Sequence record: PX418213.1
Direction: 5' to 3' (one strand)
DNA: 64,000 bases
DNA from: a phage
Below the pieces are notes generated by a model that made no database searches, had not been told where the DNA came from, and saw only the letters and a program-made list of their open reading frames with translations. Positions 8,918 through 64,000 of this stretch are shown here, one piece after another. The first letter of the stretch is position 1. Each line of letters opens with the position of its first letter. The position numbers and the translations under genes were made by a program.

Positions 8918-9214
8918 ATGACCAAAGCTGAAATTATCGCACAATGTGAAAAATTTGGTGAGTTTTATCTTCATTACGAGAAACTTCGTCAGAAAGGAAC
9001 CACGTACCTTCAGGGTACGATGGAATTTGATCCAGCCCAAGATAAATATCTGGCTGAGCGTATTAAACGTGAACGTATTCGTAAAGCGAAAGATGATGAG
9101 ATCCTTGTCTTCTCTCGTACTAATGATAGCTTCCGTTTTATTCCTGTCGAGAAAGTCCGTCGTGTGACTAGCCTCCAATCAGAGTTAGATCGTGCTTCTC
9201 CAGTAGGCCGATAA
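8918..9214 (+). CDS. hypothetical protein (98 aa)
   Basis: ORF track; AAGGAA upstream; terminator downstream. Confidence 0.45.
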   Translation: MTKAEIIAQCEKFGEFYLHYEKLRQKGTTYLQGTMEFDPAQDKYLAERIKRERIRKAKDDEILVFSRTNDSFRFIPVEKVRRVTSLQSELDRASPVGR

Positions 9215-9224
9215 GAAACCAATT

Positions 9225-9246
9225 AGCCCCTATATGGGGCTTTTTG
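9225..9246 (+). terminator. rho-independent terminator
   Basis: Stem agcccc / ggggct, loop tatat, then TTTTT. Confidence 0.6.
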
Positions 9247-9264
9247 TGTATTTGGGATAAGTAA

Positions 9265-9573
9265 ATGAGCGAACAGGTAAATCAAAACTATGAAGGACAC
9301 GTTGATGACCAGTCCATCATACTCTGGGAGAAGGAGGGAGAACAAATAAGATTAACAGTATCTGAATTTCGTGGGAATCTATACATGGGTATTCGTTACT
9401 GGCTTCTTGATATTAATGATGAATGGTTTCCAACGAAATCTGGCTTCTCTTTTCCTTACACCCTAGAAACAACATCACAGCTTTTCTATGCGTTTACACA
9501 GATTCTTAGCGAATCTGAGGTTTTACATGAAGTACAGAAACGAGCTGAAGAACTCAAAGCCAAGAATGCCTAG
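9265..9573 (+). CDS. hypothetical protein (102 aa)
   Basis: ORF track; flanked by terminators. Confidence 0.45.
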   Translation: MSEQVNQNYEGHVDDQSIILWEKEGEQIRLTVSEFRGNLYMGIRYWLLDINDEWFPTKSGFSFPYTLETTSQLFYAFTQILSESEVLHEVQKRAEELKAKNA

Positions 9574-9590
9574 TTCTTGGCTTTTTCTTT
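9559..9590 (+). terminator. rho-independent terminator
   Basis: Stem gccaaga / tcttggc followed by tttttcttt. Confidence 0.6.
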
Positions 9591-9600
9591 ATAAATGTAT

Positions 9601-9629
9601 TTGCTTTCAACTCAGTTTTGTTATATAAT
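9601..9629 (+). promoter_or_regulatory. sigma70 promoter, N25 type
   Basis: TTGCTT, 17 nt, TATAAT; downstream leader gagagggttgcaaaGTG. Confidence 0.55.
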
Positions 9630-9659
9630 ATTTATATAAATTAATGAGAGGGTTGCAAA

Positions 9660-9932
9660 GTGAAAAAGATAAATATAAGTACACTTAAACCTTTCCCATA
9701 TATCGGACAGCCTCTTATACTTATGTGGGAGGAGAAGATTAATGGAGAAAAGTATTCTAAAATTAGAAGTGGGTATAAGCTGATTTCACTTCATTACGAA
9801 AAAGAAATATTAACAGCTGAAATATACTCTCCATTGTCAGATAGGCTAGTAAAAACCACGTATTTGCATCTCTGCAAAAATTTTACATGGCACGGATCCA
9901 CTAGACAGCCCACGTACTATGAGGCAGAATAA
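9660..9932 (+). CDS. hypothetical protein (90 aa, GTG start)
   Basis: ORF track; stop overlaps the ligase start (TAAATG). Confidence 0.4.
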   Translation: MKKINISTLKPFPYIGQPLILMWEEKINGEKYSKIRSGYKLISLHYEKEILTAEIYSPLSDRLVKTTYLHLCKNFTWHGSTRQPTYYEAE

Positions 9933-10904
9933 ATGACTAATATAAAAGACTTTATTAAACGTTGTCAAGAAGCGTATTACCAGGGAATGTCTTTAATCTC
10001 TGACGAAGAATATGATCGTCTGATTAAAAGATTTCCGTTAGAAGAAGAGATTGGCCCTAAGGGCGATATTCCACATCTGTATCGTATGTATTCTTTACAG
10101 AAAGTTTATTATAATCGTGGAGATAAACCCCCATTTAACCCATTAGGTCAGGTAGAAACTGACAAGTTAGATGGTTGTGCGATTTCTCTATTATATATTA
10201 ATGGCGAATTTGTTCAAGCGCTAACTCGTGGTAATGGCATTTTAGGGAATGATGTCACAAGCAACGTAAGATTGCTGAATATCCCTGAAAAGATTTCCCA
10301 AAAAGTACCTACTCAAATCACTGGTGAAGTTCTAATTACAAAAGAAGTAGAAAATAAACGTAACTTTGCCTCTGGTGCTATTAACCTCAAAGATAGCGAT
10401 GATTTCGTACAACGTATCGGGGAAGGTGGTTTAATCTTCGTTGCATACGGTATCCAGTGTTCTGCTGAATCTGTAGGTATTACAGAATCGTATTTAAAAG
10501 ATATGCTCTGGCTAGAGAATGAAGATTTCTTAACAGTTGTTAATGTGCGTTCCTTCTTTAAATGGATTCCGACGGACGGTAAAGTTGTTCGTATTAATGA
10601 CAACAACAAATTCTTCCGAGAAGGCTGGACTAATAAATTCCCTCGTGGGGCATTCGCTATTAAAGAGGATGAAGAAGGCGAGATTACAACTCTTACTAAA
10701 GTTGAATGGCAGGTAGGGGCTTCTGGTAAAGTAACTCCAGTTGGTTATTTCGAACCGGTAATTATTGATGATGCTACAATTGTTAAAGCGACTCTTAATA
10801 ACGTTGATTATATTAACTCTCTTGATCTAGAGATCGGTTGCCAGATTCGAGTGATTCGTGCTGGTGGTGTAATCCCGTGCATAGTAGAGCGAGTATACGA
10901 TTAA
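9933..10904 (+). CDS. NAD-dependent DNA ligase, N-terminal adenylation-domain ORF
   Basis: Adenylation lysine motif DKLDGCAISL (KxDG); ends with a stop well before the Zn-finger/HhH/BRCT part. Confidence 0.7.
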   Translation: MTNIKDFIKRCQEAYYQGMSLISDEEYDRLIKRFPLEEEIGPKGDIPHLYRMYSLQKVYYNRGDKPPFNPLGQVETDKLDGCAISLLYINGEFVQALTRGNGILGNDVTSNVRLLNIPEKISQKVPTQITGEVLITKEVENKRNFASGAINLKDSDDFVQRIGEGGLIFVAYGIQCSAESVGITESYLKDMLWLENEDFLTVVNVRSFFKWIPTDGKVVRINDNNKFFREGWTNKFPRGAFAIKEDEEGEITTLTKVEWQVGASGKVTPVGYFEPVIIDDATIVKATLNNVDYINSLDLEIGCQIRVIRAGGVIPCIVERVYD

Positions 10905-14201: not shown

Positions 14202-15088
14202 GTAGAATAACAGAACTACTTGATCTGAAAGGCATTGAATATAAAGACACAGGTGGGGACATCCTCATCTGTTGTCTCAATCCAGATCATGACGATAAAC
14301 ACCCAAGTTTGCGTATTGATCCTGAAACAGGTATTATGCACTGCTTGAGTTGTGGCTTCGGTAAAGGTATACCGAGCATTTACCATTATTTTAATGAGAC
14401 TCAGTACCGACAGTCCCCAAGACTATCGCAGGTACGCAAAAAGATTTCAGAGATTAGGAATGGATCAACGAATCTTGCAATTCCTGAATCTGCTTACCTT
14501 TTCGAAGGTGATTTCCGAGGTATAAGTTCTAAGACCTTGAAGAAATATTTTGCTTTCCAACACCAAGCAGACTGGGAAGGCAGAATTGTATTCCCAATCA
14601 CAGATGCTGTTGGACGCAATATCCTATTTTTGGGTCGTTCTATAAACAGTTCTGCCCCTCCTAAATACTTAGTAAAACCAAAACAAGTTTCACCACCTAT
14701 TTTCCCTGTACGATATAATACTCCAGTTCTTATTCTAGTTGAAGGTATCTTTGATATGCTGAACCTAGAGGATAATGGTATAGACTATGCTTCTTGCTGC
14801 TTTGGTACACATCAGTTTACTTCGGATAACATTGCAGATAAGTTCAGCCCTTATATTATTGCTGGTGTAAAAGTTGTTGTTATCTTACTAGATAATGATG
14901 CTTCTGGTAATAAGGCTGCACAAGCATTGGCCAAATTAATTCGCACAAAAACGCGTTTAACACCTGTAGTTGCTAACTTTCTCCTGCCTGAAGGCAAAGA
15001 TCCGGGTGATTTAAACAAAGATGAAATTGATATGTTAGCAAAACGTATTGAAATTTTAGTTGCTGAATCGCTTAAAGATTTGGTATAA
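14198..15088 (+). CDS. DnaG-like DNA primase (zinc-binding plus TOPRIM)
   Basis: CCLNPDHDDKHPSL...HCLSCGFG zinc-binding motif; TOPRIM residues LVEG and LDNDASG; ATG overlaps the helicase stop (ATGA). Confidence 0.65.
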   Translation: MSRITELLDLKGIEYKDTGGDILICCLNPDHDDKHPSLRIDPETGIMHCLSCGFGKGIPSIYHYFNETQYRQSPRLSQVRKKISEIRNGSTNLAIPESAYLFEGDFRGISSKTLKKYFAFQHQADWEGRIVFPITDAVGRNILFLGRSINSSAPPKYLVKPKQVSPPIFPVRYNTPVLILVEGIFDMLNLEDNGIDYASCCFGTHQFTSDNIADKFSPYIIAGVKVVVILLDNDASGNKAAQALAKLIRTKTRLTPVVANFLLPEGKDPGDLNKDEIDMLAKRIEILVAESLKDLV

Positions 15089-15150: not shown

Positions 15151-17718
15151 TTGAAAATCGCAGTAGTTGATAAAGCTCTAAATAACACTCGTTACGATAA
15201 ACATTTCCAGCTATACGGCGAGGAAGTTGATGTATTCCATATGTGTAACGAGAAGTTATCTGGTCGTTTGCTTAAAAAGCACATTACTATTGGAACACCA
15301 GAAAACCCATTTGATCCGAATGATTATGATTTTGTTATACTAGTAGGTGCTGAACCTTTCCTGTATTTCGCAGGTAAGAAAGGTATTGGTGACTATACTG
15401 GTAAACGTGTAGAGTATAATGGATATGCTAACTGGATTGCGAGTATCAGCCCAGCCCAGTTACACTTTAAGCCTGAAATGAAACCAGTTTTCGATGCAAC
15501 AGTAGAGAATATCCACGATATTATCAATGGTCGTGAGAAGATTGCAAAAGCTGGTGATTACCGTCCTATTACTGACCCTGACGAGGCAGAAGAATATATC
15601 AAGATGGTGTATAATATGGTTATCGGACCTGTCGCATTCGACTCCGAAACCTCAGCACTATACTGTCGAGATGGTTATCTGCTTGGTGTTTCTATGTCTC
15701 ACCAAGAATATCAGGGTGTATATATCGATTCTGATTGTCTCACAGAGGTTGCAGTATATTATCTCCAGAAAATTCTGGATAGTGAAAACCACACTATTGT
15801 TTTTCACAACTTGAAGTTTGATATGCACTTTTATAAGTACCATCTGGGACTTACTTTTGATAAAGCACATAAAGAACGTAGGCTCCATGATACCATGTTG
15901 CAGCATTATGTTCTGGATGAACGTCGTGGTACTCATGGCTTGAAATCTCTAGCAATGAAGTATACCGATATGGGTGACTATGACTTTGAACTAGATAAGT
16001 TCAAGGAGGATTACTGCAAAGCACATAAAATCAAGAAAGAAGATTTCACCTATGATTTAATTCCGTTTGATATTATGTGGCCTTACGCTGCAAAAGATAC
16101 CGATGCCACCATACGTTTGCATAACTTCTTCTTACCAAAAATTGAGAAGAATGAAAAACTTTGCAGTCTGTATTATGACGTTCTAATGCCTGGTTGCGTA
16201 TTTCTCCAGCGTGTTGAGGATCGTGGTGTACCTATTTCTATTGATCGTTTAAAAGAAGCTCAGTACCAGTTAACACATAATCTGAATAAAGCTCGTGAAA
16301 AGCTGTATACTTATCCAGAAGTCGTTCAGCTAGAGAAAGATCAGAACGAAGCGTTTAACCCAAACTCTGTTAAACAACTCCGTGTTCTTCTGTTTGATTA
16401 TGTTGGCTTAACTCCAACAGGTAAATTGACGGATACTGGAGCAGACTCTACAGATGCAGAAGCTCTGAACGAACTGTCTACGCAGCATCCAATTGCTAAA
16501 ACTCTGCTAGAGATTCGTAAGCTAACTAAGCTGATCTCTACTTACGTTGAGAAGATTCTTCTGAGCATTGATGCTGATGGTTGCATTCGTACTGGCTTCC
16601 ACGAACACATGACTACTTCTGGTCGTCTGAGTTCTTCTGGTAAACTGAACCTGCAACAGCTACCTCGTGATGAATCTATTATCAAGGGTTGTGTAGTAGC
16701 TCCTCCCGGGTATCGTGTAATCGCGTGGGACTTAACAACTGCGGAAGTTTATTATGCTGCTGTTCTATCTGGTGATAGAAATATGCAACAAGTATTTATC
16801 AACATGAGAAATGAACCAGATAAATACCCTGACTTCCACTCTAACATCGCACACATGGTATTTAAGCTCCAATGCGAACCTCGTGATGTTAAAAAGTTAT
16901 TCCCAGCTCTGCGTCAGGCTGCTAAGGCAATTACCTTCGGTATTTTGTATGGTTCTGGCCCGGCTAAAGTAGCTCATTCTGTTAATGAAGCTCTTCTGGA
17001 ACAAGCTGCTAAGACAGGTGAACCGTTTGTAGAGTGTACTGTTGCAGATGCTAAAGAGTACATTGAAACTTACTTCGGTCAGTTCCCGCAGCTTAAGCGT
17101 TGGATTGATAAATGTCATGACCAGATCAAGAATCATGGATTTATCTATAGTCACTTTGGTCGTAAACGTCGTCTGCATAATATCCATTCCGAAGACCGTG
17201 GTGTTCAGGGTGAAGAAATCCGTTCTGGATTTAACGCAATCATTCAGTCTGCTTCTTCTGATAGTCTCCTTTTAGGTGCTGTAGATGCAGATAATGAGAT
17301 CATTTCTCTTGGCCTAGAACAAGAGATGAAGATTGTTATGCTGGTTCATGACTCCGTAGTTGCTATTGTTCGTGAGGATTTGATCGACCAATACAATGAA
17401 ATCCTGATTCGTAATATTCAGAAAGACCGTGGTATCAGTATTCCTGGCTGTCCGATTGGTATTGATTCAGATTCTGAAACTGGAGGTTCTCGTGACTATT
17501 CTTGTGGTAAGATGAAGAAACAGCACCCATCAATCGCTTGTATTGATGATGATGAATATACTCGTTATGTCAAGGGTGTATTACTTGATGCAGAGTTCGA
17601 GTATAAGAAACTAGCTGCAATGGATAAAGAGCATCCAGATCATAGCAAATACAAGGATGATAAGTTTATTGCTGTATGTAAAGATTTGGATAACGTGAGA
17701 AGGATTCTCGGTGCTTGA
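15151..17718 (+). CDS. family-A DNA polymerase with 3'-5' exonuclease domain
   Basis: Exo motif FDSETSALY; Pol I motif A AWDLTTAEVYY, motif B RQAAKAITFGILYGSG, motif C LVHDS; 855 aa; TTG start after GAGGAG. Confidence 0.85.
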   Translation: MKIAVVDKALNNTRYDKHFQLYGEEVDVFHMCNEKLSGRLLKKHITIGTPENPFDPNDYDFVILVGAEPFLYFAGKKGIGDYTGKRVEYNGYANWIASISPAQLHFKPEMKPVFDATVENIHDIINGREKIAKAGDYRPITDPDEAEEYIKMVYNMVIGPVAFDSETSALYCRDGYLLGVSMSHQEYQGVYIDSDCLTEVAVYYLQKILDSENHTIVFHNLKFDMHFYKYHLGLTFDKAHKERRLHDTMLQHYVLDERRGTHGLKSLAMKYTDMGDYDFELDKFKEDYCKAHKIKKEDFTYDLIPFDIMWPYAAKDTDATIRLHNFFLPKIEKNEKLCSLYYDVLMPGCVFLQRVEDRGVPISIDRLKEAQYQLTHNLNKAREKLYTYPEVVQLEKDQNEAFNPNSVKQLRVLLFDYVGLTPTGKLTDTGADSTDAEALNELSTQHPIAKTLLEIRKLTKLISTYVEKILLSIDADGCIRTGFHEHMTTSGRLSSSGKLNLQQLPRDESIIKGCVVAPPGYRVIAWDLTTAEVYYAAVLSGDRNMQQVFINMRNEPDKYPDFHSNIAHMVFKLQCEPRDVKKLFPALRQAAKAITFGILYGSGPAKVAHSVNEALLEQAAKTGEPFVECTVADAKEYIETYFGQFPQLKRWIDKCHDQIKNHGFIYSHFGRKRRLHNIHSEDRGVQGEEIRSGFNAIIQSASSDSLLLGAVDADNEIISLGLEQEMKIVMLVHDSVVAIVREDLIDQYNEILIRNIQKDRGISIPGCPIGIDSDSETGGSRDYSCGKMKKQHPSIACIDDDEYTRYVKGVLLDAEFEYKKLAAMDKEHPDHSKYKDDKFIAVCKDLDNVRRILGA

Positions 17719-48104: not shown

Positions 48105-48556
48105 TATAAGAACCTTGCGAATCCTGATTTTGTTTCAGTCTTGACTTGTGTCTTTTCTTGAGGATTCTGTAATTTGTCTTTCTGCTTTTGAACCCACACT
48201 TTTTGCTTATTAGCAGAAAATAAAGGAGGTTCTTTTGTATAAACCTTATGTAATAATTGGTGGTGATGCTGGCAGAGTGTTACTACTTCTTCAATTAGCT
48301 CTCGCTCATATTGCTTATAGAATGCTTCCCTATTAGATAGGGTAATCTCCTCATCAGTGAAATCTAATTGATTTTCTTTAGCGAATTTTTTAACTAATTG
48401 AGAAATAGTAAAATAATGATGTAACTCTAGGTCATCATTACTACCACAGATTGCACAGCAATCACCCCTCCTATACCTAGATTTAATGCCGTCACGCATA
48501 ATCGATATGGCGTCACGTTTGAATTTTACATTGGTGGCCATGTTCCTCCAATCCAA
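48104..48556 (-). CDS. HNH endonuclease
   Basis: CCAICGS...LELHH...LCQHHHQLLH zinc-binding HNH signature. Confidence 0.65.
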   Translation of the reverse strand: MDWRNMATNVKFKRDAISIMRDGIKSRYRRGDCCAICGSNDDLELHHYFTISQLVKKFAKENQLDFTDEEITLSNREAFYKQYERELIEEVVTLCQHHHQLLHKVYTKEPPLFSANKQKVWVQKQKDKLQNPQEKTQVKTETKSGFARFL

Positions 48557-54321: not shown

Positions 54322-54432
54322 TTTGACTTTTGCCAAATTTCATAAGATTACACATGGAGGTGTGTCCAGTGGGTTGGGAGAGAATACTTAGTCTGCTAAC
54401 CGCCACCCCCGTTACTATTACCATGCTAAATG

Positions 54433-54471
54433 TTTCACCCTGCAACCATTTTAATTGCAAGGTGAAACAAT
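54433..54471. other. hairpin between convergent genes
   Basis: 14-bp stem with one mismatch, gtttcaccctgcaa / ttgcaaggtgaaac. Confidence 0.3.
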
Positions 54472-54485
54472 TTCAACTTTAATTA

Positions 54486-55262
54486 TTACGCGACTTTTAG
54501 TTTCTCAATATATTGTTGCGGGCTGCAACTATATTCTGCGCGTTCTTCTTCTGTCATACTTTCCCAACATAGTTTTAAGCGATCGGCTAGGAACTGATAA
54601 TCATTATCATCCTCGAGCGATTCATCAATAAAGGTTCCGCCTATCAATGCCACGCCGATTGATAGAATATCATTAACGGCTTGCGCGTCCAACGTTTTAA
54701 ATCCGTATGATGCCGCCGCTGATAATACACCTTTATGATCATCAATCATTGTAAAATCAGCGTTCGGGTATAGCTGTTTAAATAATCCAAAGTAGTAACT
54801 TTTATATACTGCGTCCTTGCTGTGGTATATTTCGCTAACCTTATCAGCTTCAAAATATTTGTGCAGTGTATCGCGGGAAAATACACGGATATTACTATCC
54901 CCACGCCCGCGCAAGCCTTGCTTGCGTAGGAAGTAATAATCTGATTTGCTCATCAGGCGAGCGGTACAAATAAGGTTTAAGGTATTTGCGTCATTCATGC
55001 ATTGGCGCATATATTCAACTAATGGTAATAAGGTGTCTTGCATTATTAAATGATGCTTGCAAGCCTCGTTTTTGTATTTATTTAAATCTAAATTCCCGTC
55101 GCTATCAAAGCAAGGCGCTACGCGATGGAATGAGTTAACGATAGTGCCATCAAGATCCCAAATCATGACGCGGGAAACATGAGGAAAGCTACGGGTAATA
55201 TTCGTTTTAACTTGATTCATTTTGTTACGTTCTCCATTAAAGGGATGTAGTTTATCCAGCAT
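54486..55262 (-). CDS. dmp: HAD-family phosphatase, likely deoxynucleoside 5'-monophosphatase (dmp-like)
   Basis: HAD motif I VMIWDLDGTIV; sits in a pre-early-like block next to an A1-like gene. Confidence 0.5.
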   Translation of the reverse strand: MLDKLHPFNGERNKMNQVKTNITRSFPHVSRVMIWDLDGTIVNSFHRVAPCFDSDGNLDLNKYKNEACKHHLIMQDTLLPLVEYMRQCMNDANTLNLICTARLMSKSDYYFLRKQGLRGRGDSNIRVFSRDTLHKYFEADKVSEIYHSKDAVYKSYYFGLFKQLYPNADFTMIDDHKGVLSAAASYGFKTLDAQAVNDILSIGVALIGGTFIDESLEDDNDYQFLADRLKLCWESMTEEERAEYSCSPQQYIEKLKVA

Positions 55263-55300
55263 TGCCCGCTATCTATCAGCGGGCAATAATAAATCAACTA

Positions 55301-55693
55301 TTAAAGACCAAAGGCCAGCGCATCAGCGATAAAACTAATATCTTCTCCTGATACGTGGGAACGAATGCCCGCGCATGTAAATACCTTCGCGCTCATTAGT
55401 TGATCATCAAGACAAGCCGGACAAGGCGCGACAACTGCAAACGCTAGGCCGGATTTCACGGCGTCGATGATAATCGTTTCCTGCTTCACCGTATCAACAT
55501 AAACGCCTGCGGCCTTGATGTGACTACTTGCGCGGCCTTGCGTATAGGCGAAAGTCGTGATCTGCAGCGCCTCGTTAAACTCGAGTAAATCATCAACAAC
55601 GTGACCGGCCTCAACGTGATACCGCTCCCCATTAGAATAAACCAGAACGATTGAGGATTGAGCGCGATCGAATGGAATATTTTGCTTTTTCAT
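55301..55693 (-). CDS. hypothetical protein (130 aa)
   Basis: ORF track; contains HVE and PCPAC motifs but with spacing atypical for cytidine deaminases. Confidence 0.35.
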   Translation of the reverse strand: MKKQNIPFDRAQSSIVLVYSNGERYHVEAGHVVDDLLEFNEALQITTFAYTQGRASSHIKAAGVYVDTVKQETIIIDAVKSGLAFAVVAPCPACLDDQLMSAKVFTCAGIRSHVSGEDISFIADALAFGL

Positions 55694-55760
55694 AGTTATA
55701 AAACTCCAATTAATTTAATAAGGGAAATAAGCGAGGTATATACCCCGCTTATAAATTTAA

Positions 55761-57446
55761 TTATGCGAAAAACTTACCGTTTTTAAAGTCAATCAAAGTG
55801 CGCTGGCCGTTCGCATAGGTAATTAAATGCGTTTGCGTCCAGCTTGACGCGCCAACGTTATAGCCCATATCTAGGGAACCAGCAACGCCCGCCGTATATA
55901 CGCCGCCGTAAATGCTGGCGGTGTGAGTGTGCCCCGTGTTTAACTTGCCCAATTTCTTAAACTGCTTAGGATTGCCACGGCTGCCGTTTATGCCGTTGTG
56001 ACCGTGTACGCCGCATTCAATGCCTGCAATCTTGAAAGATTGATCAGTCGTTAGGAAAATCGCGTTAAACTCGCAACCTGCGACGGTACGCAGCGCATAA
56101 TCTAGCACGTTGAAAGTATCATCCTGCCTTGCAATAGCTGCATAGATAGCGGCATTCAGGCGGTGATATAATTCCGCGTTTGCTGGATCGTCTTTAATGT
56201 TAGCATTGCGATCATCAAGCCAACGGGATAGCGCCAGATCGTGGTTTGATTCCACAATGATTGTTTGACTAAAATCACGTTCCATTGATTCCAGCACGCG
56301 CCCGGTATCGATGAGATCATCCAGAACCTTATCACGTCCGGCTGCATACTGTTTCGCTAGAAATACACCAGAAGCGCGGTTATGGTGGTTGCGCGATGTA
56401 AAATCATGCACGTCATGCACAAATTGATATTTTGGCTTGAGAATATCCACTAGCCCATAAGTATCACCGTGCCCCCATGACGCTGCGGCGCACTCCTCAT
56501 CAAGTTTTTCGGCGTGTATGTCGCCATATTGCAAGCCTAAAACATGCCCCGACGTTTCAAAGCATCCGGTGGGAGTAGCGCAAACGTTCAGATCGTAAAA
56601 CATGCCGCTTTCGTCCATCGTTTCAAGCTGGCGCACAAAAAACTCACCGTCTTCGTCGAACTCAACAATCAGCGCACCGAAATTATGCAATGCTTCCGCT
56701 TTCTGTCCTGCTTTCTGCTGAATGTAGTTTTTAAGCGTTGCCGTTCCGGTGGAATACATGCGGCGCACTACTTCACCTTTGAGAGCTGGCACGCTTTCGG
56801 CGGTGATTTTAGCGTGACCAATTGCCAGACCTTCCAGATTAAGCGCGGTTGCAGTTTCTGCGAATCCAGACAGCGGATAGTCTGCGGTGGGCAAAACATT
56901 AATTTCAGCCATGAAAGCGAAACGGCGGTTATTTAAAAACACGTTTTTACTGCAAATATATTTATCAAACGCGGAATCATATTTGATTCCGTCTGCGCCT
57001 TCCCCATTCTGGAATCCGTTTTTATTATAAATATACTTGCTAACCAGCAAATCAGCGCCGATAAATTGGGCGTATTGCTCCAACGCGGCTAAAAAGTTTT
57101 TATGCGGGAAAGTATTATTTTGAATCGACGTTAGAATAAAGCGTTTACCTTGTTTTACTTCCCACTGTTCCACCGTGCTAGAAATAATTCCAGCCGCTTC
57201 GGGGCGCTCGTCGTTTTTAATGGCTTTTGCTACTTTCGCCGCTTTTGGTTTCGCTGGTTTATTTGCTTCCAGCCAATCACAAATCGCGGTGGAGTGTTTT
57301 GCAGTATCGTAAACCGCTTTCGAAATATCGTCACAAACTTCCAGCTTGGTGGCGCGCAGACGTTTACCATAGAAATTAAAGTCAGCGGCCAGCTTCAGGA
57401 TAACGGTTTGCTTTTCTGCGGAAATAATCATAGTAATAAGCTCCAT
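55761..57446 (-). CDS. A1: A1-like pre-early protein with metallophosphoesterase domain
   Basis: 561 aa; calcineurin-like motifs YGDIH, ESNHD, GHxH-like GHTH; adjacent to an A2-like gene. Confidence 0.55.
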   Translation of the reverse strand: MELITMIISAEKQTVILKLAADFNFYGKRLRATKLEVCDDISKAVYDTAKHSTAICDWLEANKPAKPKAAKVAKAIKNDERPEAAGIISSTVEQWEVKQGKRFILTSIQNNTFPHKNFLAALEQYAQFIGADLLVSKYIYNKNGFQNGEGADGIKYDSAFDKYICSKNVFLNNRRFAFMAEINVLPTADYPLSGFAETATALNLEGLAIGHAKITAESVPALKGEVVRRMYSTGTATLKNYIQQKAGQKAEALHNFGALIVEFDEDGEFFVRQLETMDESGMFYDLNVCATPTGCFETSGHVLGLQYGDIHAEKLDEECAAASWGHGDTYGLVDILKPKYQFVHDVHDFTSRNHHNRASGVFLAKQYAAGRDKVLDDLIDTGRVLESMERDFSQTIIVESNHDLALSRWLDDRNANIKDDPANAELYHRLNAAIYAAIARQDDTFNVLDYALRTVAGCEFNAIFLTTDQSFKIAGIECGVHGHNGINGSRGNPKQFKKLGKLNTGHTHTASIYGGVYTAGVAGSLDMGYNVGASSWTQTHLITYANGQRTLIDFKNGKFFA

Positions 57447-57527
57447 TAAAGGGATAAAAAACGTTTGTTATTGGCAAATGTTGCCAAATATAACGCCTCC
57501 AATAATAGGCGTTATAATTTGCAATAT

Positions 57528-57725
57528 TTAACTAATAGGCATCAGGCTAGAACTAACACCGCAAACAACGGCGGCAATAAAACAAATCAGGCCCAAACGC
57601 TTCGCTAACTTAGATTTGCGTTTAAAATAATACGAATCTAAATCATTTTGAAAATATGCGAACAATAACGAGGCCGCCACAATAAATAGGCCTAAAATTA
57701 AGGATTCAGTAGGAAAGAAAATCAT
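57528..57725 (-). CDS. small membrane protein (two predicted TM segments)
   Basis: MIFFPTESLILGLFIVAASLLFAYF...LICFIAAVVCGV; ORF track version 57528..57773. Confidence 0.3.
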   Translation of the reverse strand: MIFFPTESLILGLFIVAASLLFAYFQNDLDSYYFKRKSKLAKRLGLICFIAAVVCGVSSSLMPIS

Positions 57726-57782
57726 TTTAATAACTCCAATTAAAGGGAAATTATAGTGGGGAATAATCCCCACTAATTAAAT

Positions 57783-58190
57783 TTATTCACCTGCGGCTTG
57801 TTTTACCTCATCGGCAACGCCTAACAACTGCGCCACGGCGTCCAGCGTTTCCAGCTTCGCGCTTTCAAGGCTTGCCAGATCATCGGCGTCCTTGATAATG
57901 CCGGAATCGATAGCGTGTTTTGCAATTACTCGCACATAGTGAGCTTTACGGATTGAGCTGCCGCCGCCAACCTTGCGCGGCTTGTCGCTTTTTTGGTAGG
58001 CTTTCGCGCTGGTCAATTTCGAACGAACTGACACGGGAGAAGCCGCACCAACTGCTTTCGCGATCTCTTTCAAGCCGTCGCTATTTGCGAATTCTAGCCC
58101 GTTTTCATTGATTAACTGCTGATACATGGAAACAGCCTGCTGGGTGTTTTCTTCGTTCCAGGAAAATTTTGCGGCTTTAACGTTAGTCAT
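57783..58190 (-). CDS. A2: A2-like pre-early DNA-binding protein (135 aa)
   Basis: Size and position immediately upstream of the A1-like gene; basic C-terminal half. Confidence 0.45.
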   Translation of the reverse strand: MTNVKAAKFSWNEENTQQAVSMYQQLINENGLEFANSDGLKEIAKAVGAASPVSVRSKLTSAKAYQKSDKPRKVGGGSSIRKAHYVRVIAKHAIDSGIIKDADDLASLESAKLETLDAVAQLLGVADEVKQAAGE

Positions 58191-58290
58191 GGTAAAAACT
58201 CCAATTAATTTAATTTAAGGGATTAAATGATTAACTAATGTTAATCGTTATATGCCCCGAACTACTGGGGCATATAAAGTTAACACTAAT

Positions 58291-58542
58291 TTATAAAACG
58301 GCTTCCCATTTTTCGTTGCGTTGAACAACCTTTACAACGTCGCCGGATTTAACGCGAACGTTATAAATCGGCTTGCCGTTGTTACTGCGCTCATTTTCAG
58401 CGTATACCGCGTCGATTGTATCGAACGGCATGAGCGCCGCGCCTTTAATACGTTCGGCTTTTCCGGTCAATTCATCCGTTTTAGTAACGAAAGGAATAAA
58501 AACGGATTGACCAACTTTCGGCGCATTAATAACGTTTTTCAT
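58291..58542 (-). CDS. hypothetical small protein (83 aa)
   Basis: ORF track; first gene of the minus-strand pre-early-like unit. Confidence 0.4.
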   Translation of the reverse strand: MKNVINAPKVGQSVFIPFVTKTDELTGKAERIKGAALMPFDTIDAVYAENERSNNGKPIYNVRVKSGDVVKVVQRNEKWEAVL

Positions 58543-58774
58543 GGTATAAACTCCAAGTTATTTGTGGATTGTTCCGCATTATCTGCTACTTTCTAGCAGA
58601 CAATAAGAAAAAATCCGCTAGCCATTATAAAATCAATTTAAGGAACTCCACGCGGGCCGCTATATCCCAGTTAGGGGGCGGGATGCATTATGGTAAGCAC
58701 CGACCGTCAGATTTTATCAAGTTATCGCTCTTATCGAACTGGGTACATCTTAAAGCCTATCGGCTAGGGTGTCA

Positions 58775-58948
58775 AATAGTTTTTTCGTTTTCTTTTAAGT
58801 TAGGATCTTCCCAACTGAATAGCATTTCGCAAAATATTTTCCCATCTTTATGATGGTAAGCTATTTCACTTCCGTGGTTAGCACAAAAATTAATCACCGC
58901 TTCAGCTTGTTCTACCGTGATATTGTTAGCCGTTTCTTTGATTTTCAT
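58775..58948 (-). CDS. hypothetical small protein (57 aa, absent from the ORF track)
   Basis: ATG at 58948 preceded by AAGGAA at 8-nt spacing; translation MKIKETANNITVEQAEAVINFCANHGSEIAYHHKDGKIFCEMLFSWEDPNLKENEKTI. Confidence 0.3.
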
Positions 58949-59373
58949 ATCGTCGATTCCTTATAATGTAATAAGTTTACCGCCGATAGGCTTTAAGATA
59001 TACCCAATTTTTAAAGAGCGCGGCGGTAAACTTCCCGCCGTGTAGTTCGTCATTGCCGCCCTACGAGATAAATAATAACAAACAACGAAAAAGGCGCAAC
59101 CTTATATTTGTAAAGAAATGTAAAGACAAACGCCACCGGACACCGTGCGGCGACCTGGGCGCAGCGCATTAAAATTAAAAGAAACGGGCGCGCGAATAAC
59201 ACAAAACATAGCAGATAGGCAAGTAATTTTTTCACTTATATTTGCTTTGGGGGTATTGACAAAATCTAAAAAGCTCGTGGCAGCGATAAACGACGTGGCC
59301 CCTTATGATTGGATGGCCAAAAACTTTATTGCGTTCTGGGGCGTTTTAGGCGCATTCTAGCCTTGTTGATAAC

Positions 59374-59834
59374 TTATCCACAGAAGCAAAAATGAAATTT
59401 TCCTAGTTATCCACTTGACTTTTATTTTCCAGTGGATAACTACTTATTTTATGAAATAAATTAATTGACTTTTATTTGCTAGTATGCATCGGAAAGATAG
59501 CAGACTAATAATTGCTAGGATGATGATCATGCTGGTGGATTGTAACGGCCTGAATTATTAGCAGACTGTTAATCAGGGAAAATCTCATTAGCCAACTAAC
59601 TATTTCATGATATATAATATACTTATAAATTAATGAGAAATAATAACTATAAGAAATCATCATCATTATAATAATAACTATAAGAAATCATCATCATTAT
59701 AATAATAACTATAAGAAACTATCGGCATAAGTGAGAACCACTATCATTTAAGTTATCCACAACGTTATCCACAGCACAAAATAATTTGACACGATAGGCG
59801 GCGATATGAGGGCTTTTACACAGACTTATCCACA
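59374..59834. promoter_or_regulatory. cluster of DnaA-box-like 9-mers in an AT-rich intergenic region
   Basis: TTATCCACA at 59374, 59744, 59755, 59826; TTATCCACT / AGTGGATAA inverted pair at 59407 and 59431. Confidence 0.55.
59640..59727. repeat. tandem direct repeat, 31-bp unit, about 2.6 copies
   Basis: ataataactataagaaatcatcatcattata repeated with period 31. Confidence 0.7.
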
Positions 59835-59860
59835 GGTTATCCTACTGTATAAATATACAG
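59821..59860. repeat. left arm of a 40-bp inverted repeat containing a DnaA box
   Basis: cagacttatccacaggttatcctactgtataaatatacag; reverse complement of 63118-63157 with one mismatch. Confidence 0.7.
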
Positions 59861-59956
59861 GGTAAAAAGGCAGTGTTAACGACTGCAATCAATTTTAGGC
59901 GGCCTAAAACGCTTTCTAACGAGCTAAACGCTGCGGGGTAATATTAAAGTAAAGAC

Positions 59957-60003
59957 CCAACACGTCGCCCTGATGGCTTCAGTGCGTCGCCCTGGTGGCT
60001 TCG
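59957..60003. repeat. tandem direct repeat, about 22-bp unit, two copies
   Basis: cgtcgccctgatggcttc / cgtcgccctggtggcttc. Confidence 0.5.
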
Positions 60004-60149
60004 CCGTGTTTTGCTCGTTACTACACCGCTGCGCGGTTAGCATAAAATTAGGCGTTAGGCAAGAAAAATAAAAAAGTAAAATAATCTTTGCCTATGCTAG
60101 AAAATTACCTTTATCATTCACTCACCGATTAACGAGAGGGGCCGAACAA

Positions 60150-61136
60150 ATGAGGCTATATAAACCAGATAACGCAACCGTCTTAAAAGGTGCGCTGCGT
60201 AACCTGCTGGACGGTAGCAGAACAACCAGCATTAAGCATTTTGTTTTCAATATTGAAACTATTCATCAAAACTTTTTTGATGATTATGATGCTTATAATA
60301 TGAATAGTTTTCTACCGTTATATAAGCAAGGGGCAACGCTTGTTTTATATAATCAGGATTATCAATTACTTACTAGTCGGGGGCCGGATACTGATTTCAT
60401 AATAGTAAAAGGCAACACAGTAAAAGCCTATGATACTGGGGCGGGCCTAGAAGTTTTTTCAATAGAAAACTATGAGGCCAATGATAATGATCTTTATGAC
60501 GTAGAAAATTTTCTCGATTCATTTTGGCGTTATTTATCAGTTGGCTGGAATCGGTCGGATTCTGATGGGTATCGTTTTGCGGCTATAATGGCCTTTGATG
60601 ATAACGGTAATTTTTTGCTACCGTCGGAGTTATATAATCGGGTATATGAAGGCGATATTGTTGACGCCGGATTTTCTTTCGAAAGGGAAGAAAGTATTGG
60701 CAATATAGAAAAACATGTTGTAAATTCTAACACTAAAAACGTTCACACTCAAACTACTGAAAACAAAGGAAAAAATACCATGACCAAGATTGCTAACATC
60801 GTTGCCGCTAATAAATCCGCCGTTGTAAACGCTGCAAAACTGGAAGCGGGTAAAATTGCACTAACTCAAATCACGAAAGTAGCGGCTAAAAAAGCACCGT
60901 TCATGATCAGAGGCTATATTGATACGCCGATTGGTCGCGTAGTGATCGCTAACCTGCTGAGTGTAGCGGTTGACCAGTACGCCCCGAGTAACCAGAAAGC
61001 GAAAGCGGTAGCAAGCGCGGCAATGGAAGCGGCTATGTTAGAAATGGTGCAATCTTTTAACATCGCTGAGATGATCGATGAAATGGTAAAAGGTATCGAT
61101 ATTTCTACTTTTACCAATAACACCGAAAACGAGTAA
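60150..61136 (+). CDS. hypothetical protein (328 aa; possibly two fused domains or genes)
   Basis: ORF track; internal ATG at about 60780 preceded by AAGGAAAA starts an Ala/Val-rich C-terminal part. Confidence 0.4.
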   Translation: MRLYKPDNATVLKGALRNLLDGSRTTSIKHFVFNIETIHQNFFDDYDAYNMNSFLPLYKQGATLVLYNQDYQLLTSRGPDTDFIIVKGNTVKAYDTGAGLEVFSIENYEANDNDLYDVENFLDSFWRYLSVGWNRSDSDGYRFAAIMAFDDNGNFLLPSELYNRVYEGDIVDAGFSFEREESIGNIEKHVVNSNTKNVHTQTTENKGKNTMTKIANIVAANKSAVVNAAKLEAGKIALTQITKVAAKKAPFMIRGYIDTPIGRVVIANLLSVAVDQYAPSNQKAKAVASAAMEAAMLEMVQSFNIAEMIDEMVKGIDISTFTNNTENE

Positions 61137-61253
61137 TAAATAATCTAATGTAAAGTTTTGTAAAGGTCGCCTTTTATGGTGGCCTTTTTTGTTATAATGC
61201 CTTTACACCGTTCGAGGACGGTTGAAATTTTCCCAAAATTTTGGAGGCTTAAA

Positions 61254-61484
61254 ATGGTTGCTTTTTCTTCTGCTAGTCATCTTTTCACTGGAAAAGGCTG
61301 GGTATCAAATCGCTGGATCATTCAAGAAATGGTGCAAGAGTACGGCATCGCTAAAACTTATACTACCATACAGGCGCTTTATGATAATGATCAGATTGAT
61401 CAGCAAACGGCGGGCTTTTTACTGGATACCCTGAAGGCGGAGCACTGTACCAAAAAACAAGCGGCCAAAATTATTTTAATGTAA
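61254..61484 (+). CDS. hypothetical small protein (76 aa)
   Basis: ATG 61254 preceded by GGAGG; ORF track start 61176 overlaps the upstream intergenic region. Confidence 0.35.
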   Translation: MVAFSSASHLFTGKGWVSNRWIIQEMVQEYGIAKTYTTIQALYDNDQIDQQTAGFLLDTLKAEHCTKKQAAKIILM

Positions 61485-61492
61485 TCAATAAC

Positions 61493-61511
61493 GGGGGATA
61501 TAATATCCCCC
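61493..61511. other. perfect palindromic hairpin
   Basis: gggggatataatatccccc. Confidence 0.4.
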
Positions 61512-61533
61512 ACTAACTAGGGGAGTATTACAA

Positions 61534-61713
61534 ATGGTTATTTTTCGAGCTTTTTTAGCGGGTATCTTGGGCGCTATTCTTACTCTTTTTGCTACCGCTT
61601 ACGGTATCCAAGATTATTGCGGCTTAGTAGTCACAAAACCTATGGTTACTATTGGCGCGGGTATCGCTGTATTTTCTTATCTGCTGGGCTGCATGACTAG
61701 TAAAGGAGAATAA
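61534..61713 (+). CDS. small membrane protein (59 aa, absent from the ORF track)
   Basis: ATG preceded by GGGGAG; two hydrophobic segments (FLAGILGAILTLFATAY and VTIGAGIAVFSYLLG). Confidence 0.3.
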   Translation: MVIFRAFLAGILGAILTLFATAYGIQDYCGLVVTKPMVTIGAGIAVFSYLLGCMTSKGE

Positions 61714-61715
61714 AA

Positions 61716-61928
61716 ATGATCCGCAACGTTTCTCTTGCACGTTCGAAAGGCTTTGCGCTGGTGGATGCTAACACGTTCGAGCGTCCTGATTGTAAAATTG
61801 AATATGTAGCACGTAATAAAAATGCCTTTCGTGTTACTGAAAAGAAATTCGACAAGCGCGGCAACGTGATCCTTGAAACGGTCAGGCACTTTGCCACCTT
61901 TTACGCTGCGTTTCGTGGGGTACTATGA
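61716..61928 (+). CDS. hypothetical small protein (70 aa)
   Basis: ATG preceded by AAAGGAG. Confidence 0.45.
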   Translation: MIRNVSLARSKGFALVDANTFERPDCKIEYVARNKNAFRVTEKKFDKRGNVILETVRHFATFYAAFRGVL

Positions 61929-62056
61929 AAAGCGTTATTGTTGTTCTCCTTGCAATGGCTGGCGGTTTTATCGCCACCTTATTTAGGAATGACCCCGTTT
62001 CGCTGGGGATCTTTATGCTTTTATCTGGATACCTGATCGGGAGGTTATGCAAATGA
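61925..62056 (+). CDS. small membrane protein (43 aa, absent from the ORF track)
   Basis: ATGA overlap with the previous stop; hydrophobic MKSVIVVLLAMAGGFIATLF. Confidence 0.3.
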   Translation: MKSVIVVLLAMAGGFIATLFRNDPVSLGIFMLLSGYLIGRLCK

Positions 62057-62397
62057 TCATTTACGAGGGCAATCGTTTTGTTGCTAACTGCCGCCCGGCA
62101 TTGTTAGCAAACTATTTAAACCAGCTTTCGCCAGCTTATAAGGGCGTTATTAATATTTATGAGGGCAAGGCGCATTATAAAATCAATGCGGTCGTTGCCC
62201 GTGAACTAGCGTTTCAATTTTTAACCTTCGCATCTTGCGACGTTCAGGTAATGGGTGAGGCATTAATCGCAGAAAATGAGGATGATTTTATTAATATTTT
62301 TCGCAAGATATGCACCGAGCGCCTGATAATGAAAGGCGCGTATATTCAATCCACGGCTGATAGTATTGAAACAGCGTTTCGAAAGGTGGCGCAATGA
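62047..62397 (+). CDS. hypothetical protein (116 aa)
   Basis: ORF track; overlapping start and stop with neighbours. Confidence 0.4.
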   Translation: MQMIIYEGNRFVANCRPALLANYLNQLSPAYKGVINIYEGKAHYKINAVVARELAFQFLTFASCDVQVMGEALIAENEDDFINIFRKICTERLIMKGAYIQSTADSIETAFRKVAQ

Positions 62398-62609
62398 GTG
62401 AAATTACTTGGAATATGTTGCTGAAGGTTAAACGGGTAAAATTAACGCAGGATTTATGGGGAGTAGGTAAAACTGGGGATGTATTCACTGTGTTTAAAGA
62501 CGCCCATCATAGGTTTATAAGAAGGAATAACAATACCGGTACAGCGTTTTATTTAATTGATTTAATCAAATTACATGGTGAGGATATTTTCAAACTAGAA
62601 TATGAGTAA
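62394..62609 (+). CDS. hypothetical protein (71 aa)
   Basis: ORF track; ATGA overlap with the previous gene. Confidence 0.4.
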   Translation: MSEITWNMLLKVKRVKLTQDLWGVGKTGDVFTVFKDAHHRFIRRNNNTGTAFYLIDLIKLHGEDIFKLEYE

Positions 62610-62664
62610 CTATATAATTTTGGCGTATTGCAATGAGATAGCCAACTAATAACGGAGCGTTATT

Positions 62665-62859
62665 ATGAGCAATAAAATTGTTGTAACCAAAACTACTACG
62701 ATGGTAGACGTTTTTTACGTGCCCAATACGCCGGAGAATCGACAAGCGGTTGAGCGTGGGGAATATGATAAAGTGATCTATGATCACGATGGTTATTATC
62801 AGTATTTGGTGGATTCATACGGGGAGGAGGAAAAGATCACGCATCAACTACCTGACTAA
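62665..62859 (+). CDS. hypothetical protein (64 aa)
   Basis: ORF track; last gene of the plus-strand cassette. Confidence 0.4.
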   Translation: MSNKIVVTKTTTMVDVFYVPNTPENRQAVERGEYDKVIYDHDGYYQYLVDSYGEEEKITHQLPD

Positions 62860-63117
62860 TAATCACGGGGCGCAACTATCCGGGAGTGCCCCCAATTTTC
62901 AAACGATAATCATTCTCATTTGACCGCGCTCGCGATGGTTAGCCTGCTAATGGTTCGGGTGTTACGTGTCGCCTTGTGTGATCGTTAGCGTGCTAACTAA
63001 TTTTCAAGCCTCCTCCAATTTTGCCCTTGTTTTAGTATCTCCACCAAAATAAAACGCGTTAGAATGCGTTTGAGAGCGTTTTAGCGGTATATTAGAATTA
63101 TTCACTACATAGGAATA

Positions 63118-63157
63118 CTGTATATTTATACAGTAGGATAAGCTGTGGATAAGTCTG
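63118..63157. repeat. right arm of the 40-bp inverted repeat, with DnaA-box-like sites
   Basis: ctgtatatttatacagtaggataagctgtggataagtctg; further TGTGGATAA at 63207-63215. Confidence 0.7.
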
Positions 63158-63250
63158 TTAATAACGCCTCAAAATGGCTAGGATTCTGTCAAGTCAAATC
63201 GTGCTGTTAATAAGTCTGTGGATAACTTAAATAACAGTGTTTCTCACTTC

Positions 63251-63500
63251 CGTTCTTAAATGAGAATCATTATCATTTGCATTTCACTATCTAACTAATA
63301 ATCATTCCACTTTTTAAATGAGAATCGTTCCACTTCCTGAATAATTTTCGTTCCACTTTCTAAATGATAATCGTTATCATTTGCATTCCTCTTTCTAAAT
63401 GCGAATCATTCCACTTCTTAAATGAGAATCGTTTCACTTTTTAAATGAGAATTATTATCATTCTCATTCCGCTTTTTAAATGAGAATGATTCTTATTATC
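63251..63500. repeat. array of about seven direct repeats with a Fur-box-like palindromic core
   Basis: TTAAATGAGAATC(A/G)TT(A/C/T) units, for example 63256-63274 and 63360-63378; each matches the Fur consensus GATAATGATAATCATTATC at about 15 of 19 positions; an isolated copy at 62905-62920. Confidence 0.6.
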
Positions 63501-63510
63501 ATTCGTATTT

Positions 63511-63534
63511 AGCGCAGGGCAATTGCCCTGCGCT
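63511..63534. other. perfect 24-bp palindrome
   Basis: agcgcagggcaattgccctgcgct followed by TTTT; possible terminator or dimeric protein site. Confidence 0.5.
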
Positions 63535-63537
63535 TTT

Positions 63538-63760
63538 GTGCAAATCCGACATTGCTCCACGGGTGTTACGTGCGGGCGTGTATGTGCGAATCCGACAATT
63601 TTTGGTAGTGTGCAAATCCGACTCGAAAAATTTTTATAGTGTGCAAATCCGACAATGAATTTTTCTAGAAACTCCAGCAATCTCGAACTGCGCATCAATC
63701 CTGTGGAGTATGTGCAAATCCGACATGGTTTTTCTAGGATTAAGATGTGCGAATCCGACA
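63538..63760. repeat. six dispersed direct repeats of a 14-bp motif GTGC(A/G)AATCCGAC(A/T)
   Basis: Copies at 63538, 63584, 63609, 63641, 63712, 63747, spaced 25-71 bp, all in the same orientation. Confidence 0.7.
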
Positions 63761-64000
63761 AGATTTTTGTGACTTCGATGAGAGGGTGTGTGATTGTGTG
63801 AGTTTGAGGAGAAGTTGAGAGAGCGAGTGAAACTTGGGGGAACTGCGAGAGGGGCGCATGTTTGGTGCAGGGCACCTGATTTGCGGGGATTTTGGGGAAG
63901 AGTTGAGAAGATTTGGGTTAATTTGAGATTAGGGGAGATAAAGTAAAATTTTATTAGCAAAATGGGGCAAAATAGCTTGACAAGTGAAAATTTCTGTGGC

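Follow-up and report, generated by a model that had tools for sequence, protein, structure and literature searches.

We have analysed a stretch of 64,000 nucleotides of phage DNA (sequence record PX418213.1; below, the window is this whole stretch), and we report here on a tandem repeat array close to its end. By its sequence, this array is the DRE/DRC repeat block of the injection stop signal (iss) region, at the inner end of a terminal repeat like that of phage T5. Four long units of the array and one isolated copy at 62899 are, as judged from their letters, Fur-type operators, and each consists of two 19-bp sites lying 6 bp apart. The element itself is the already described iss repeat block of T5-like phages; what is new to the searchable literature is the Fur reading. 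We tentatively propose that the last DNA to enter in the first-step transfer (FST) is loaded with host Fur and DnaA, in a complex that would keep the paused DNA in place or mark it, or would stand in the way of RNA polymerase. We consider that the chance of this proposal being right is somewhat short of even.

Structure and Fur likeness of the repeat array

Positions 62860-64000 of the window are non-coding and contain no supported open reading frame (ORF). For 63285-63504, Tandem Repeats Finder gave periods of 23, 35 and 81 bp, and a second repeat search returned the same families. An asymmetric 23-mer, TTCCACTTYYTAAATGAGAATCR, forms the basic unit of the array; in the long units about 12 nt, TTATCATTTGCA or TTATCATTCTCA, are added to it (Table 1). 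Seven of the nine units contain the half-site AATGAGAAT when one mismatch is allowed (63259, 63317, 63363, 63398, 63421, 63444 and 63479), whereas the whole 19-nt core AATGAKAATCRTTATCATT is present at this threshold in three units only (63259, 63363 and 63444) and with three mismatches at 63479. Complete Fur-type palindromes were found in four of the nine units, the long ones only. A search with the 19-nt core returned 17 matches on both strands, compared with 0.16 expected. Between the isolated palindrome at 62899-62923 and unit 1 of the array, the complementarity is 91%.

For scoring, we used a palindromic 19-bp Fur matrix made from the best site of each of 14 Fur-regulated promoters of E. 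coli MG1655; the matrix was seeded with the consensus, which gives it some bias towards the consensus. The 14 MG1655 sites match 11-17 of the 19 consensus positions and score 8.6-22.5 bits, or 7.7-21.3 bits when each is left out in turn, and the best of these operators are fhuF (22.5 bits), fepD-entS (21.5 bits) and ryhB (21.5 bits). The four long units score between 19.9 and 21.7 bits, which is the range of the best MG1655 operators, and each of them has a second site exactly 6 bp upstream with a score between 10.3 and 17.4 bits. The full boxes match 14-16 of the 19 Fur consensus positions. Including the isolated copy, the pairs with this offset start at 62899/62905, 63256/63262, 63360/63366, 63441/63447 and 63476/63482. 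Real Fur clusters are also composed of sites that overlap at a spacing of 6 bp (Chen et al. 2007, PMC2189734).

These scores were compared with 2000 dinucleotide shuffles of the region 63240-63510. The shuffles showed a mean maximum of 8.8 bits (standard deviation 2.7), compared with 21.7 bits observed, and a mean of 0.05 matches of at least 14 bits, compared with seven observed. Throughout the window, all 11 matches that print as at least 16.0 bits lie inside the terminal repeat, which makes up 15% of the window. Independently of the matrix, GATAATGATAATCATTATC with at most three mismatches occurs four times in the window, where 0.04 are expected, and all four are in the terminal repeat. Three of the four long units also contain the 7-1-7 motif TGATAATnATTATCA, exactly or with a single mismatch; in long unit 1, TGAGAATCATTATCA differs from it by one mismatch.

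An earlier note, made from the letters of this DNA, had described about seven units with a common core that matches the Fur consensus at about 15 of 19 positions, and a further copy at 62905-62920; it had remarked that real Fur operators often match no better, and it had suggested matrix scoring against shuffled controls. The counts and shuffles given above agree with the degree of match and with the remark, and they come out in favour of the Fur likeness; the further copy is real, in inverted orientation. The number of units needs correction in part, in that seven units carry the half-site but the full core is confined to long units and the array has nine units in total. Similarly, the description of the repeats as Fur-box-like stands for the four long units (by matrix, consensus, 7-1-7 motif and nohA identity, given below), but not for the five short units, which score 5-8 bits.

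In comparison with the known Fur operators of E. coli, the array showed the same 19-bp dyad, the 7-1-7 core, the 6-bp-offset overlaps, a hexamer-phased extension and scores in the top range. The boxes here differ from those operators in that they lie within a tandem 23/35-bp repeat with half-site units and a conserved asymmetric linker; they also have no known promoter underneath, and their binding of Fur is a prediction. A promoter and terminator scan gave weak matches throughout, and the promoter-like matches that overlap the boxes (9/12) have no downstream gene. In a by-eye comparison with the consensus motifs of other regulators, ArgR, Zur, PerR, IHF and CRP fitted worse than Fur.

When one array unit was compared by BLAST with E. 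coli genomes, it matched intergenic Fur boxes. One of these, the nohA -233 site, belongs to prophage Qin and is 233 bp upstream of nohA. This site was shifted with 150 nM Fur, and it had earlier been selected in vivo for Fur binding (Chen et al. 2007, PMC2189734). Each of the long units 1 and 2 agrees with the nohA -233 site at 23 of 25 positions, without gaps and with the TTTGCAT flank included. Considering this identity to a site that is positive in gel shift, it is very likely that Fur binds the long units in vitro. Another BLAST neighbour of the phage unit was observed on plasmid pO111_3 of E. coli O111, where a Fur-like box, TTTAATAAGAATCATTATTATTTGC (14.0 + 15.5 bits; 2503-2527 of the extracted region), precedes an autotransporter gene by about 200 bp.

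Position at the T5 injection stop and conservation in the family

In the phage collection, 454 records match this region, nearly all of them enterobacterial phages, and the closest full-length DNA identity of any record is 92.7%. Window position 54363 aligns with nucleotide 1 of T5 (TGTCCA...), and window position 64000 aligns at most about 2 nt from the T5 repeat end at 10219. Since both borders align with the borders of the T5 repeat, 54363-64000 appears to be one copy of the terminal repeat; it is probably the right copy, so that the end of the window would be the end of the genome. The T5 annotation (NC_005859) labels the homologous stretch 9140-10149 as 'injection stop signal (iss)'. It places a major DNA single-chain interruption at 9748/9749 and the end of the left terminal repeat at 10219. 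The earlier note had placed the array in a terminal non-coding region, had thought of T5-type phages and had suggested a comparison with their terminal repeats. From the alignment of the window end, the region does appear to be terminal; the T5 type is borne out by the matches in the phage collection, and the comparison showed homology of the array to the T5 DRE/DRC block in the iss region.

The order of the elements is the same as in T5, namely terminator, isolated box, DnaA boxes, array, nick palindrome, DRD repeats and repeat end, and the region alignment with T5 and MM-1 showed a mean column identity of 83%. The point at 7.9% of the 121,750 bp of T5 is 9618, which is within the six-unit array of T5 (record 9540-9719). 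The DRE/DRC repeats of 'Repeat Region 3' have been described as extremely conserved, likely part of iss, and of a function that cannot be guessed (Davison 2020, bioRxiv 10.1101/866236). According to a 2023 paper, there are no experimental studies of the region. T5 Repeat Region 3 and the region analysed here are alike in their homologous sequence, in the order of the elements and in the inner position in the terminal repeat, but they differ in that T5 has six array units and this phage has nine, with an additional 81-bp block. Work by Heusterspreute in 1987, Wang in 2005 and Davison in 2015 is also said to have dealt with this repeat region. The extra block, composed of one long and two short units, falls in window 63305-63431 and is absent from T5 and MM-1. 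The arrays of close relatives have from about 4 to 8 strong boxes, indicating that the array expands and contracts.

The conservation of the element was examined in a family scan of 64 loci, with the A1 protein as anchor. A Fur-like cluster (3-8 matches of at least 12 bits) lies 4.5-9.7 kb upstream of A1 in every relative with at least 65% A1 identity, among the loci that extend far enough upstream. The palindrome CAAATGAGAATnATTCTCATTTG is present in Klebsiella phage KpGranit, Pantoea phage AAS21, Pectobacterium phages My1 and DU_PP_V and a Proteus phage, and also in Vibrio phages PG07, VspSw_1, pVp-1 and phi 3 and in a metagenomic contig; A1 identity among these carriers goes down to 31%. 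By shuffles made for each region, the clusters are significant in most of these phages. Consensus DnaA boxes, TGTGGATAA, adjoin the Fur-like boxes in all of them, and in the enterobacterial phages the order of DnaA boxes, Fur-like boxes and DRD repeats is fixed. Operator-grade candidate Fur sites are kept at the pause point from E. coli phages to Vibrio phages. Two recognisable host-factor motifs are thus unchanged in phages whose proteins share as little as about 30% identity, which fits a host ligand with conserved specificity.

A proposed role of host Fur and DnaA at the transfer pause, and the alternatives

The pause of T5 transfer at 8% has been without explanation for about 60 years. In the searchable literature DnaA is the only host-factor candidate, and Fur would be the second concrete candidate for the block at the pause point; we found no paper there that links T5 or the first-step transfer to Fur, and an older mention is possible. 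The T5 transfer stop occurs without protein synthesis, and FhuA alone in vitro causes complete ejection with no pause (Davison 2020, bioRxiv 10.1101/866236). Therefore, a host factor that is already present in the cell is needed.

In our proposal, iron-loaded host Fur would bind the long units and may spread onto the half-site units between them. Both Fur, at the array, and DnaA, at the pair of boxes beside it, are already in the cell and would together load on the last few hundred bp that enter. The resulting nucleoprotein complex would be positioned at the 7.9% pause point, where it could hold or mark the paused DNA. Alternatively, it could stop RNA polymerase coming from the rightward pre-early operon before it reaches the DNA that is still in the channel. 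Phage proteins A1 and A2 would then let the transfer resume. Fur controls the TonB-dependent receptors FhuA and FepA, and FhuA is the receptor of T5. Accordingly, a link between iron status and the entry programme would be biologically coherent.

Several points weigh against this proposal. The five short units are only half-sites on the Fur matrix. The one-sided linker of the boxes, TTCCACTT (reverse complement AAGTGG/AAGTTG), is conserved family-wide, which a symmetric Fur dimer does not explain; the conserved object is the asymmetric 23-mer and goes beyond the dyad, so that a second ligand could have a place. The family members share 40-65% identity in A2, and conservation of the motif could be due to a phage ligand equally well. 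In Vibrio phages Chazly21 and 70E37-4, the cluster was not found in the examined flank. With regard to mechanism, a cytoplasmic protein bound to DNA that has already entered cannot on its own clamp DNA that is being pushed in, a difficulty that Davison's DnaA model shares. We found no report in the literature of fur mutants affecting T5. Also, the repeat copies are not independent of each other, and a post-hoc match of a palindromic AT-rich repeat to one among hundreds of regulator motifs is not very improbable. The mechanism remains a proposal; however, the Fur reading turns an old question into one that can be tested simply. If Fur is not the ligand, an exact conserved motif, composed of half-site and linker, is still defined for finding the true binding protein.

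The Fur operators may also belong to a wider pattern. Lambda (NC_001416) carries at 48447-48471 a perfect 7-1-7 Fur motif, GTAGATGATAATCATTATCAC (16.8 + 17.3 bits), directly left of cosQ (GGGTCCT) and 30-55 bp from the right cohesive end. Stronger boxes occupy the equivalent position in two lambdoid prophage cos regions (2499-2527 in Qin and 2502-2526 in the other, numbered in the extracted regions), and the nohA -233 site of Qin scores 20.9 + 22.7 bits. The nohA/nohB Fur sites of E. coli, in prophages Qin and DLP12, are cos-adjacent. We found no literature that links cosQ with Fur. Lambda cos resembles the present region in having a host-protein site near a phage genome end (IHF site I1 in cosB; cosQ), but lambda has cohesive ends whereas here there is a 9.6-kb direct terminal repeat with the array at least 500 bp from the end; a role of Fur at lambda cos would likewise be a proposal. 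The wider idea would be that Fur with DnaA is the sought pre-existing host factor at the T5 iss, and more generally that tailed phages place Fur operators near their DNA ends as an accessory factor for entry or packaging, possibly coupled to iron status. Candidate examples would be the terminal repeats of T5-like phages, the left ends that many relatives of T5 have, and lambda-type cos sites on their cosQ side. We consider this wider idea unlikely to hold as it stands.

The alternative that survives best, already named in the earlier note, is that the units are iterons for a phage protein, most plausibly A2 (which the second-step transfer needs together with A1) or another pre-early product, and that the resemblance to Fur sites is incidental or secondary. 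The asymmetric 23-mer TTCCACTTYYTAAATGAGAATCR at 23- or 35-bp spacing is reminiscent of plasmid iterons, and the family-wide linker that does not belong to a Fur site argues for the same view. The half-site ATGAGAAT also occurs 17-39 nt from the left end in many relatives. All relatives have A2, and the stretch V55-R56-x-K58-L59 in it is invariant. Its AlphaFold model (predicted local distance difference test, pLDDT, 85) is all-helical and has a weak helix-turn-helix (HTH)/Myb-like resemblance in the N-terminal half. However, A2 has no known sequence specificity, and a fold search with Foldseek against the PDB gave nothing significant (best E 0.67); A2 also had no match in the local Pfam library or among the sequences of solved structures. 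The ten ORFs of the terminal repeat matched only DUF7177 and DUF7566 in Pfam, and no Fur-like, Rep-like or other DNA-binding family. The idea of A2 as a Fur mimic was rejected on the basis of the structure model and Foldseek. Furthermore, the stop itself is independent of phage protein synthesis, the motif is unchanged at 31% A1 identity, which would be unusual for a phage-specific ligand, and the 23/25 match to a verified Fur site reaches into the flanks. Taken together, phage-protein iterons are a serious but somewhat unlikely explanation.

It is quite improbable that the array is a packaging or end-processing element, that is, a terminase recognition array that makes or recognises the repeat border, possibly with Fur as an accessory in the way of IHF in lambda. 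The array lies 500-750 bp from the repeat end, at a distance similar to that in Pectobacterium phage My1, a related element is found 17-39 nt from the left end in many relatives, and lambda and the lambdoid prophages have a strong Fur box beside cosQ/cosN. Against this, a distance of at least 500 bp is far from the cut, and T5 and this phage do not have the Fur-like version of the left-end element. The DRD repeats lie nearer to the repeat end than the Fur-like array, which makes them a candidate packaging signal and a better one than the array.

Very unlikely, in our opinion, is a Fur-repressed promoter in the array, or several, giving an RNA of about 70 nt (roughly 63468-63540) that would end at the palindromic terminator, like RyhB or PrrF. 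The hexamers TTCACT-17-TATCAT (63433-63461) overlap box 3, a hairpin follows at 63511-63540 on the plus strand, and at a permissive threshold Rfam gave sub-threshold small-RNA matches in 62000-64000, including the Fur-regulated PrrF, that end at this hairpin. However, these Rfam matches are all far under the gathering scores (PrrF 24.8 vs 90) and are due to the terminator hairpin. The match to a promoter is also weak (9/12), and four such matches are expected by chance in this AT-rich region. The three experimentally characterised FST promoters (2026 preprint) are located elsewhere in the FST DNA.

There is only a slim chance that the region is an origin-like element, in which DnaA boxes and AT-rich 23-bp direct repeats would serve for unwinding or initiation. 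Iteron origins such as P1 oriR, pSC101, F and R6K also have DnaA boxes beside AT-rich direct repeats of about 23 bp, and here an array of 28% GC with iteron-like spacing has two consensus DnaA boxes at a distance of 30-110 bp. On the other hand, iterons are usually non-palindromic, unlike the long units, and no cognate initiator-like gene was found among the ten terminal-repeat ORFs by Pfam. The T5 origins are near the genome centre, and the replication genes are silent during the pause (Davison 2020, bioRxiv 10.1101/866236).

The least probable explanation is a Fur decoy, proposed in the earlier note, by which the sites on injected or replicated phage DNA would titrate Fur and derepress iron-regulated genes, for example those of siderophore receptors. 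The sites are of operator quality, and multicopy plasmid fragments can titrate Fur, as in the in vivo selection of nohA. However, Zheng et al. in 1999 reportedly put Fur at thousands of molecules per cell, compared with about ten dimer sites per repeat, and new receptors are of no help once the cell is infected. Within about 5 minutes, T5 degrades host DNA and brings the synthesis of host RNA and protein to an end (Davison 2020, bioRxiv 10.1101/866236), so no host regulon would be left when replicated DNA could titrate Fur, and this claim of the earlier note is not supported.

Features of the terminal repeat and its borders

Table 1. Features of the window in the terminal repeat and the iss region (for the Fur-type boxes, the bits are those of the two overlapping 19-bp sites)
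Feature	Position	Strand	Remarks
Array, DRE/DRC homologue	63247-63505	+	nine head-to-tail units, 35-23-23-23-35-23-23-35-39 bp; GC 0.28
Long unit 1, full Fur-type box TTAAATGAGAATCATTATCATTTGC	63256-63280		17.4 + 20.0 bits, 6 bp apart; identity to nohA Fur site 23/25
Long unit 2, full Fur-type box CTAAATGATAATCGTTATCATTTGC	63360-63384		16.0 + 19.9 bits; identity to nohA site 23/25
Long unit 3, 25-bp palindrome AATGAGAATTATTATCATTCTCATT	63441-63468		16.1 + 21.4 bits; inverted repeat 92% complementary
Long unit 4, TTAAATGAGAATGATTCTTATTATCATT	63476-63503		10.3 + 21.7 bits
Isolated Fur-type palindrome TCAAACGATAATCATTCTCATTTGA, inverted	62899-62923		two 19-mers 6 bp apart, 16.3 + 16.8 bits
Terminal repeat copy with pre-early genes dmp, A1 and A2	54363-64000	+	by alignment with T5
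dmp	54486-55262	-	
A1	55761-57446	-	
A2	57783-58190	-	
Terminator-like hairpin GGGGCGC...GTGCCCC, then AATTTT; end of rightward pre-early operon	62867-62899	+	read from sequence
Two consensus DnaA boxes TGTGGATAA (minus strand = TTATCCACA)	63144-63152, 63217-63225	-	each with a partner, TGTTAATAA variant
Perfect 24-bp palindrome AGCGCAGGGCAATTGCCCTGCGCT, then TTTTGT	63511-63540	+	looks like an intrinsic terminator
Six copies of TGTGCRAATCCGACA (Davison's DRD repeats)	63537-63760	+	between array and repeat end
Fur-type site, perfect 7-1-7 motif TGATAATCATTATCA, in 3' part of dmp	54590-54614		18.0 + 17.6 bits

The terminator-like hairpin has a counterpart in the T5 annotation, where a putative terminator is given at 9275-9296, just past the last pre-early ORF. 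The two DnaA boxes correspond to the DnaA boxes in Davison's IRD'-spacer-IRC' arrangement. The homologue of the first major nick of T5 (7.9%) is at 63533/63534 on the minus strand (GCGC|TTTT), within the palindrome 63511-63540. The DRD motif TGTGCRAATCCGACA is also found in KpGranit, AAS21, My1 and DU_PP_V, and as single copies in two Vibrio phages.

The Fur-type site inside dmp and the left end of the repeat are about 230 bp apart, and on the minus strand the site encodes EDDNDYQF. This site is probably a by-product of coding the peptide DDNDYQ with AT-rich codons. In KpGranit, a 24.4-bit site was seen at the equivalent dmp position (14859-14883 of the extracted locus), and the Proteus phage has a 16.6-bit site nearby (15291-15309 of the extracted locus).

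Many phages of the T5-like kind, ranging from close relatives to Vibrio cholerae phage phi 3, carry GTCCAGTGGCCCCCCAGATGAGAATGAGTCTCATTACCGCCC at the left end of the genome, as seen in the last 100 nt of nine extracted loci. This is a Fur-like palindrome of at most 18.1 bits, located 17-39 nt from the end that is injected first, and it has the half-site ATGAGAAT in common with the array. The left-end element GGTAATGAGACTnnTTCTC was not found in this window; T5 and this phage (window 54363-54410) have a variant that is not Fur-like, ...GAAAATACTTAGTCTGCTAACCGCC. By eye, the iss-region palindromes GGTTAGCCTGCTAA (62938-62951) and CGTTAGCGTGCTAA (62985-62998) resemble the left-end sequence AGTCTGCTAACCGCC (54389-54402), whose reverse complement is GGCGGTTAGCAGACT. 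This likeness between the palindromes at 62938 and 62985 and the left end at 54389-54402 suggests another element that may be common to both borders of the repeat.

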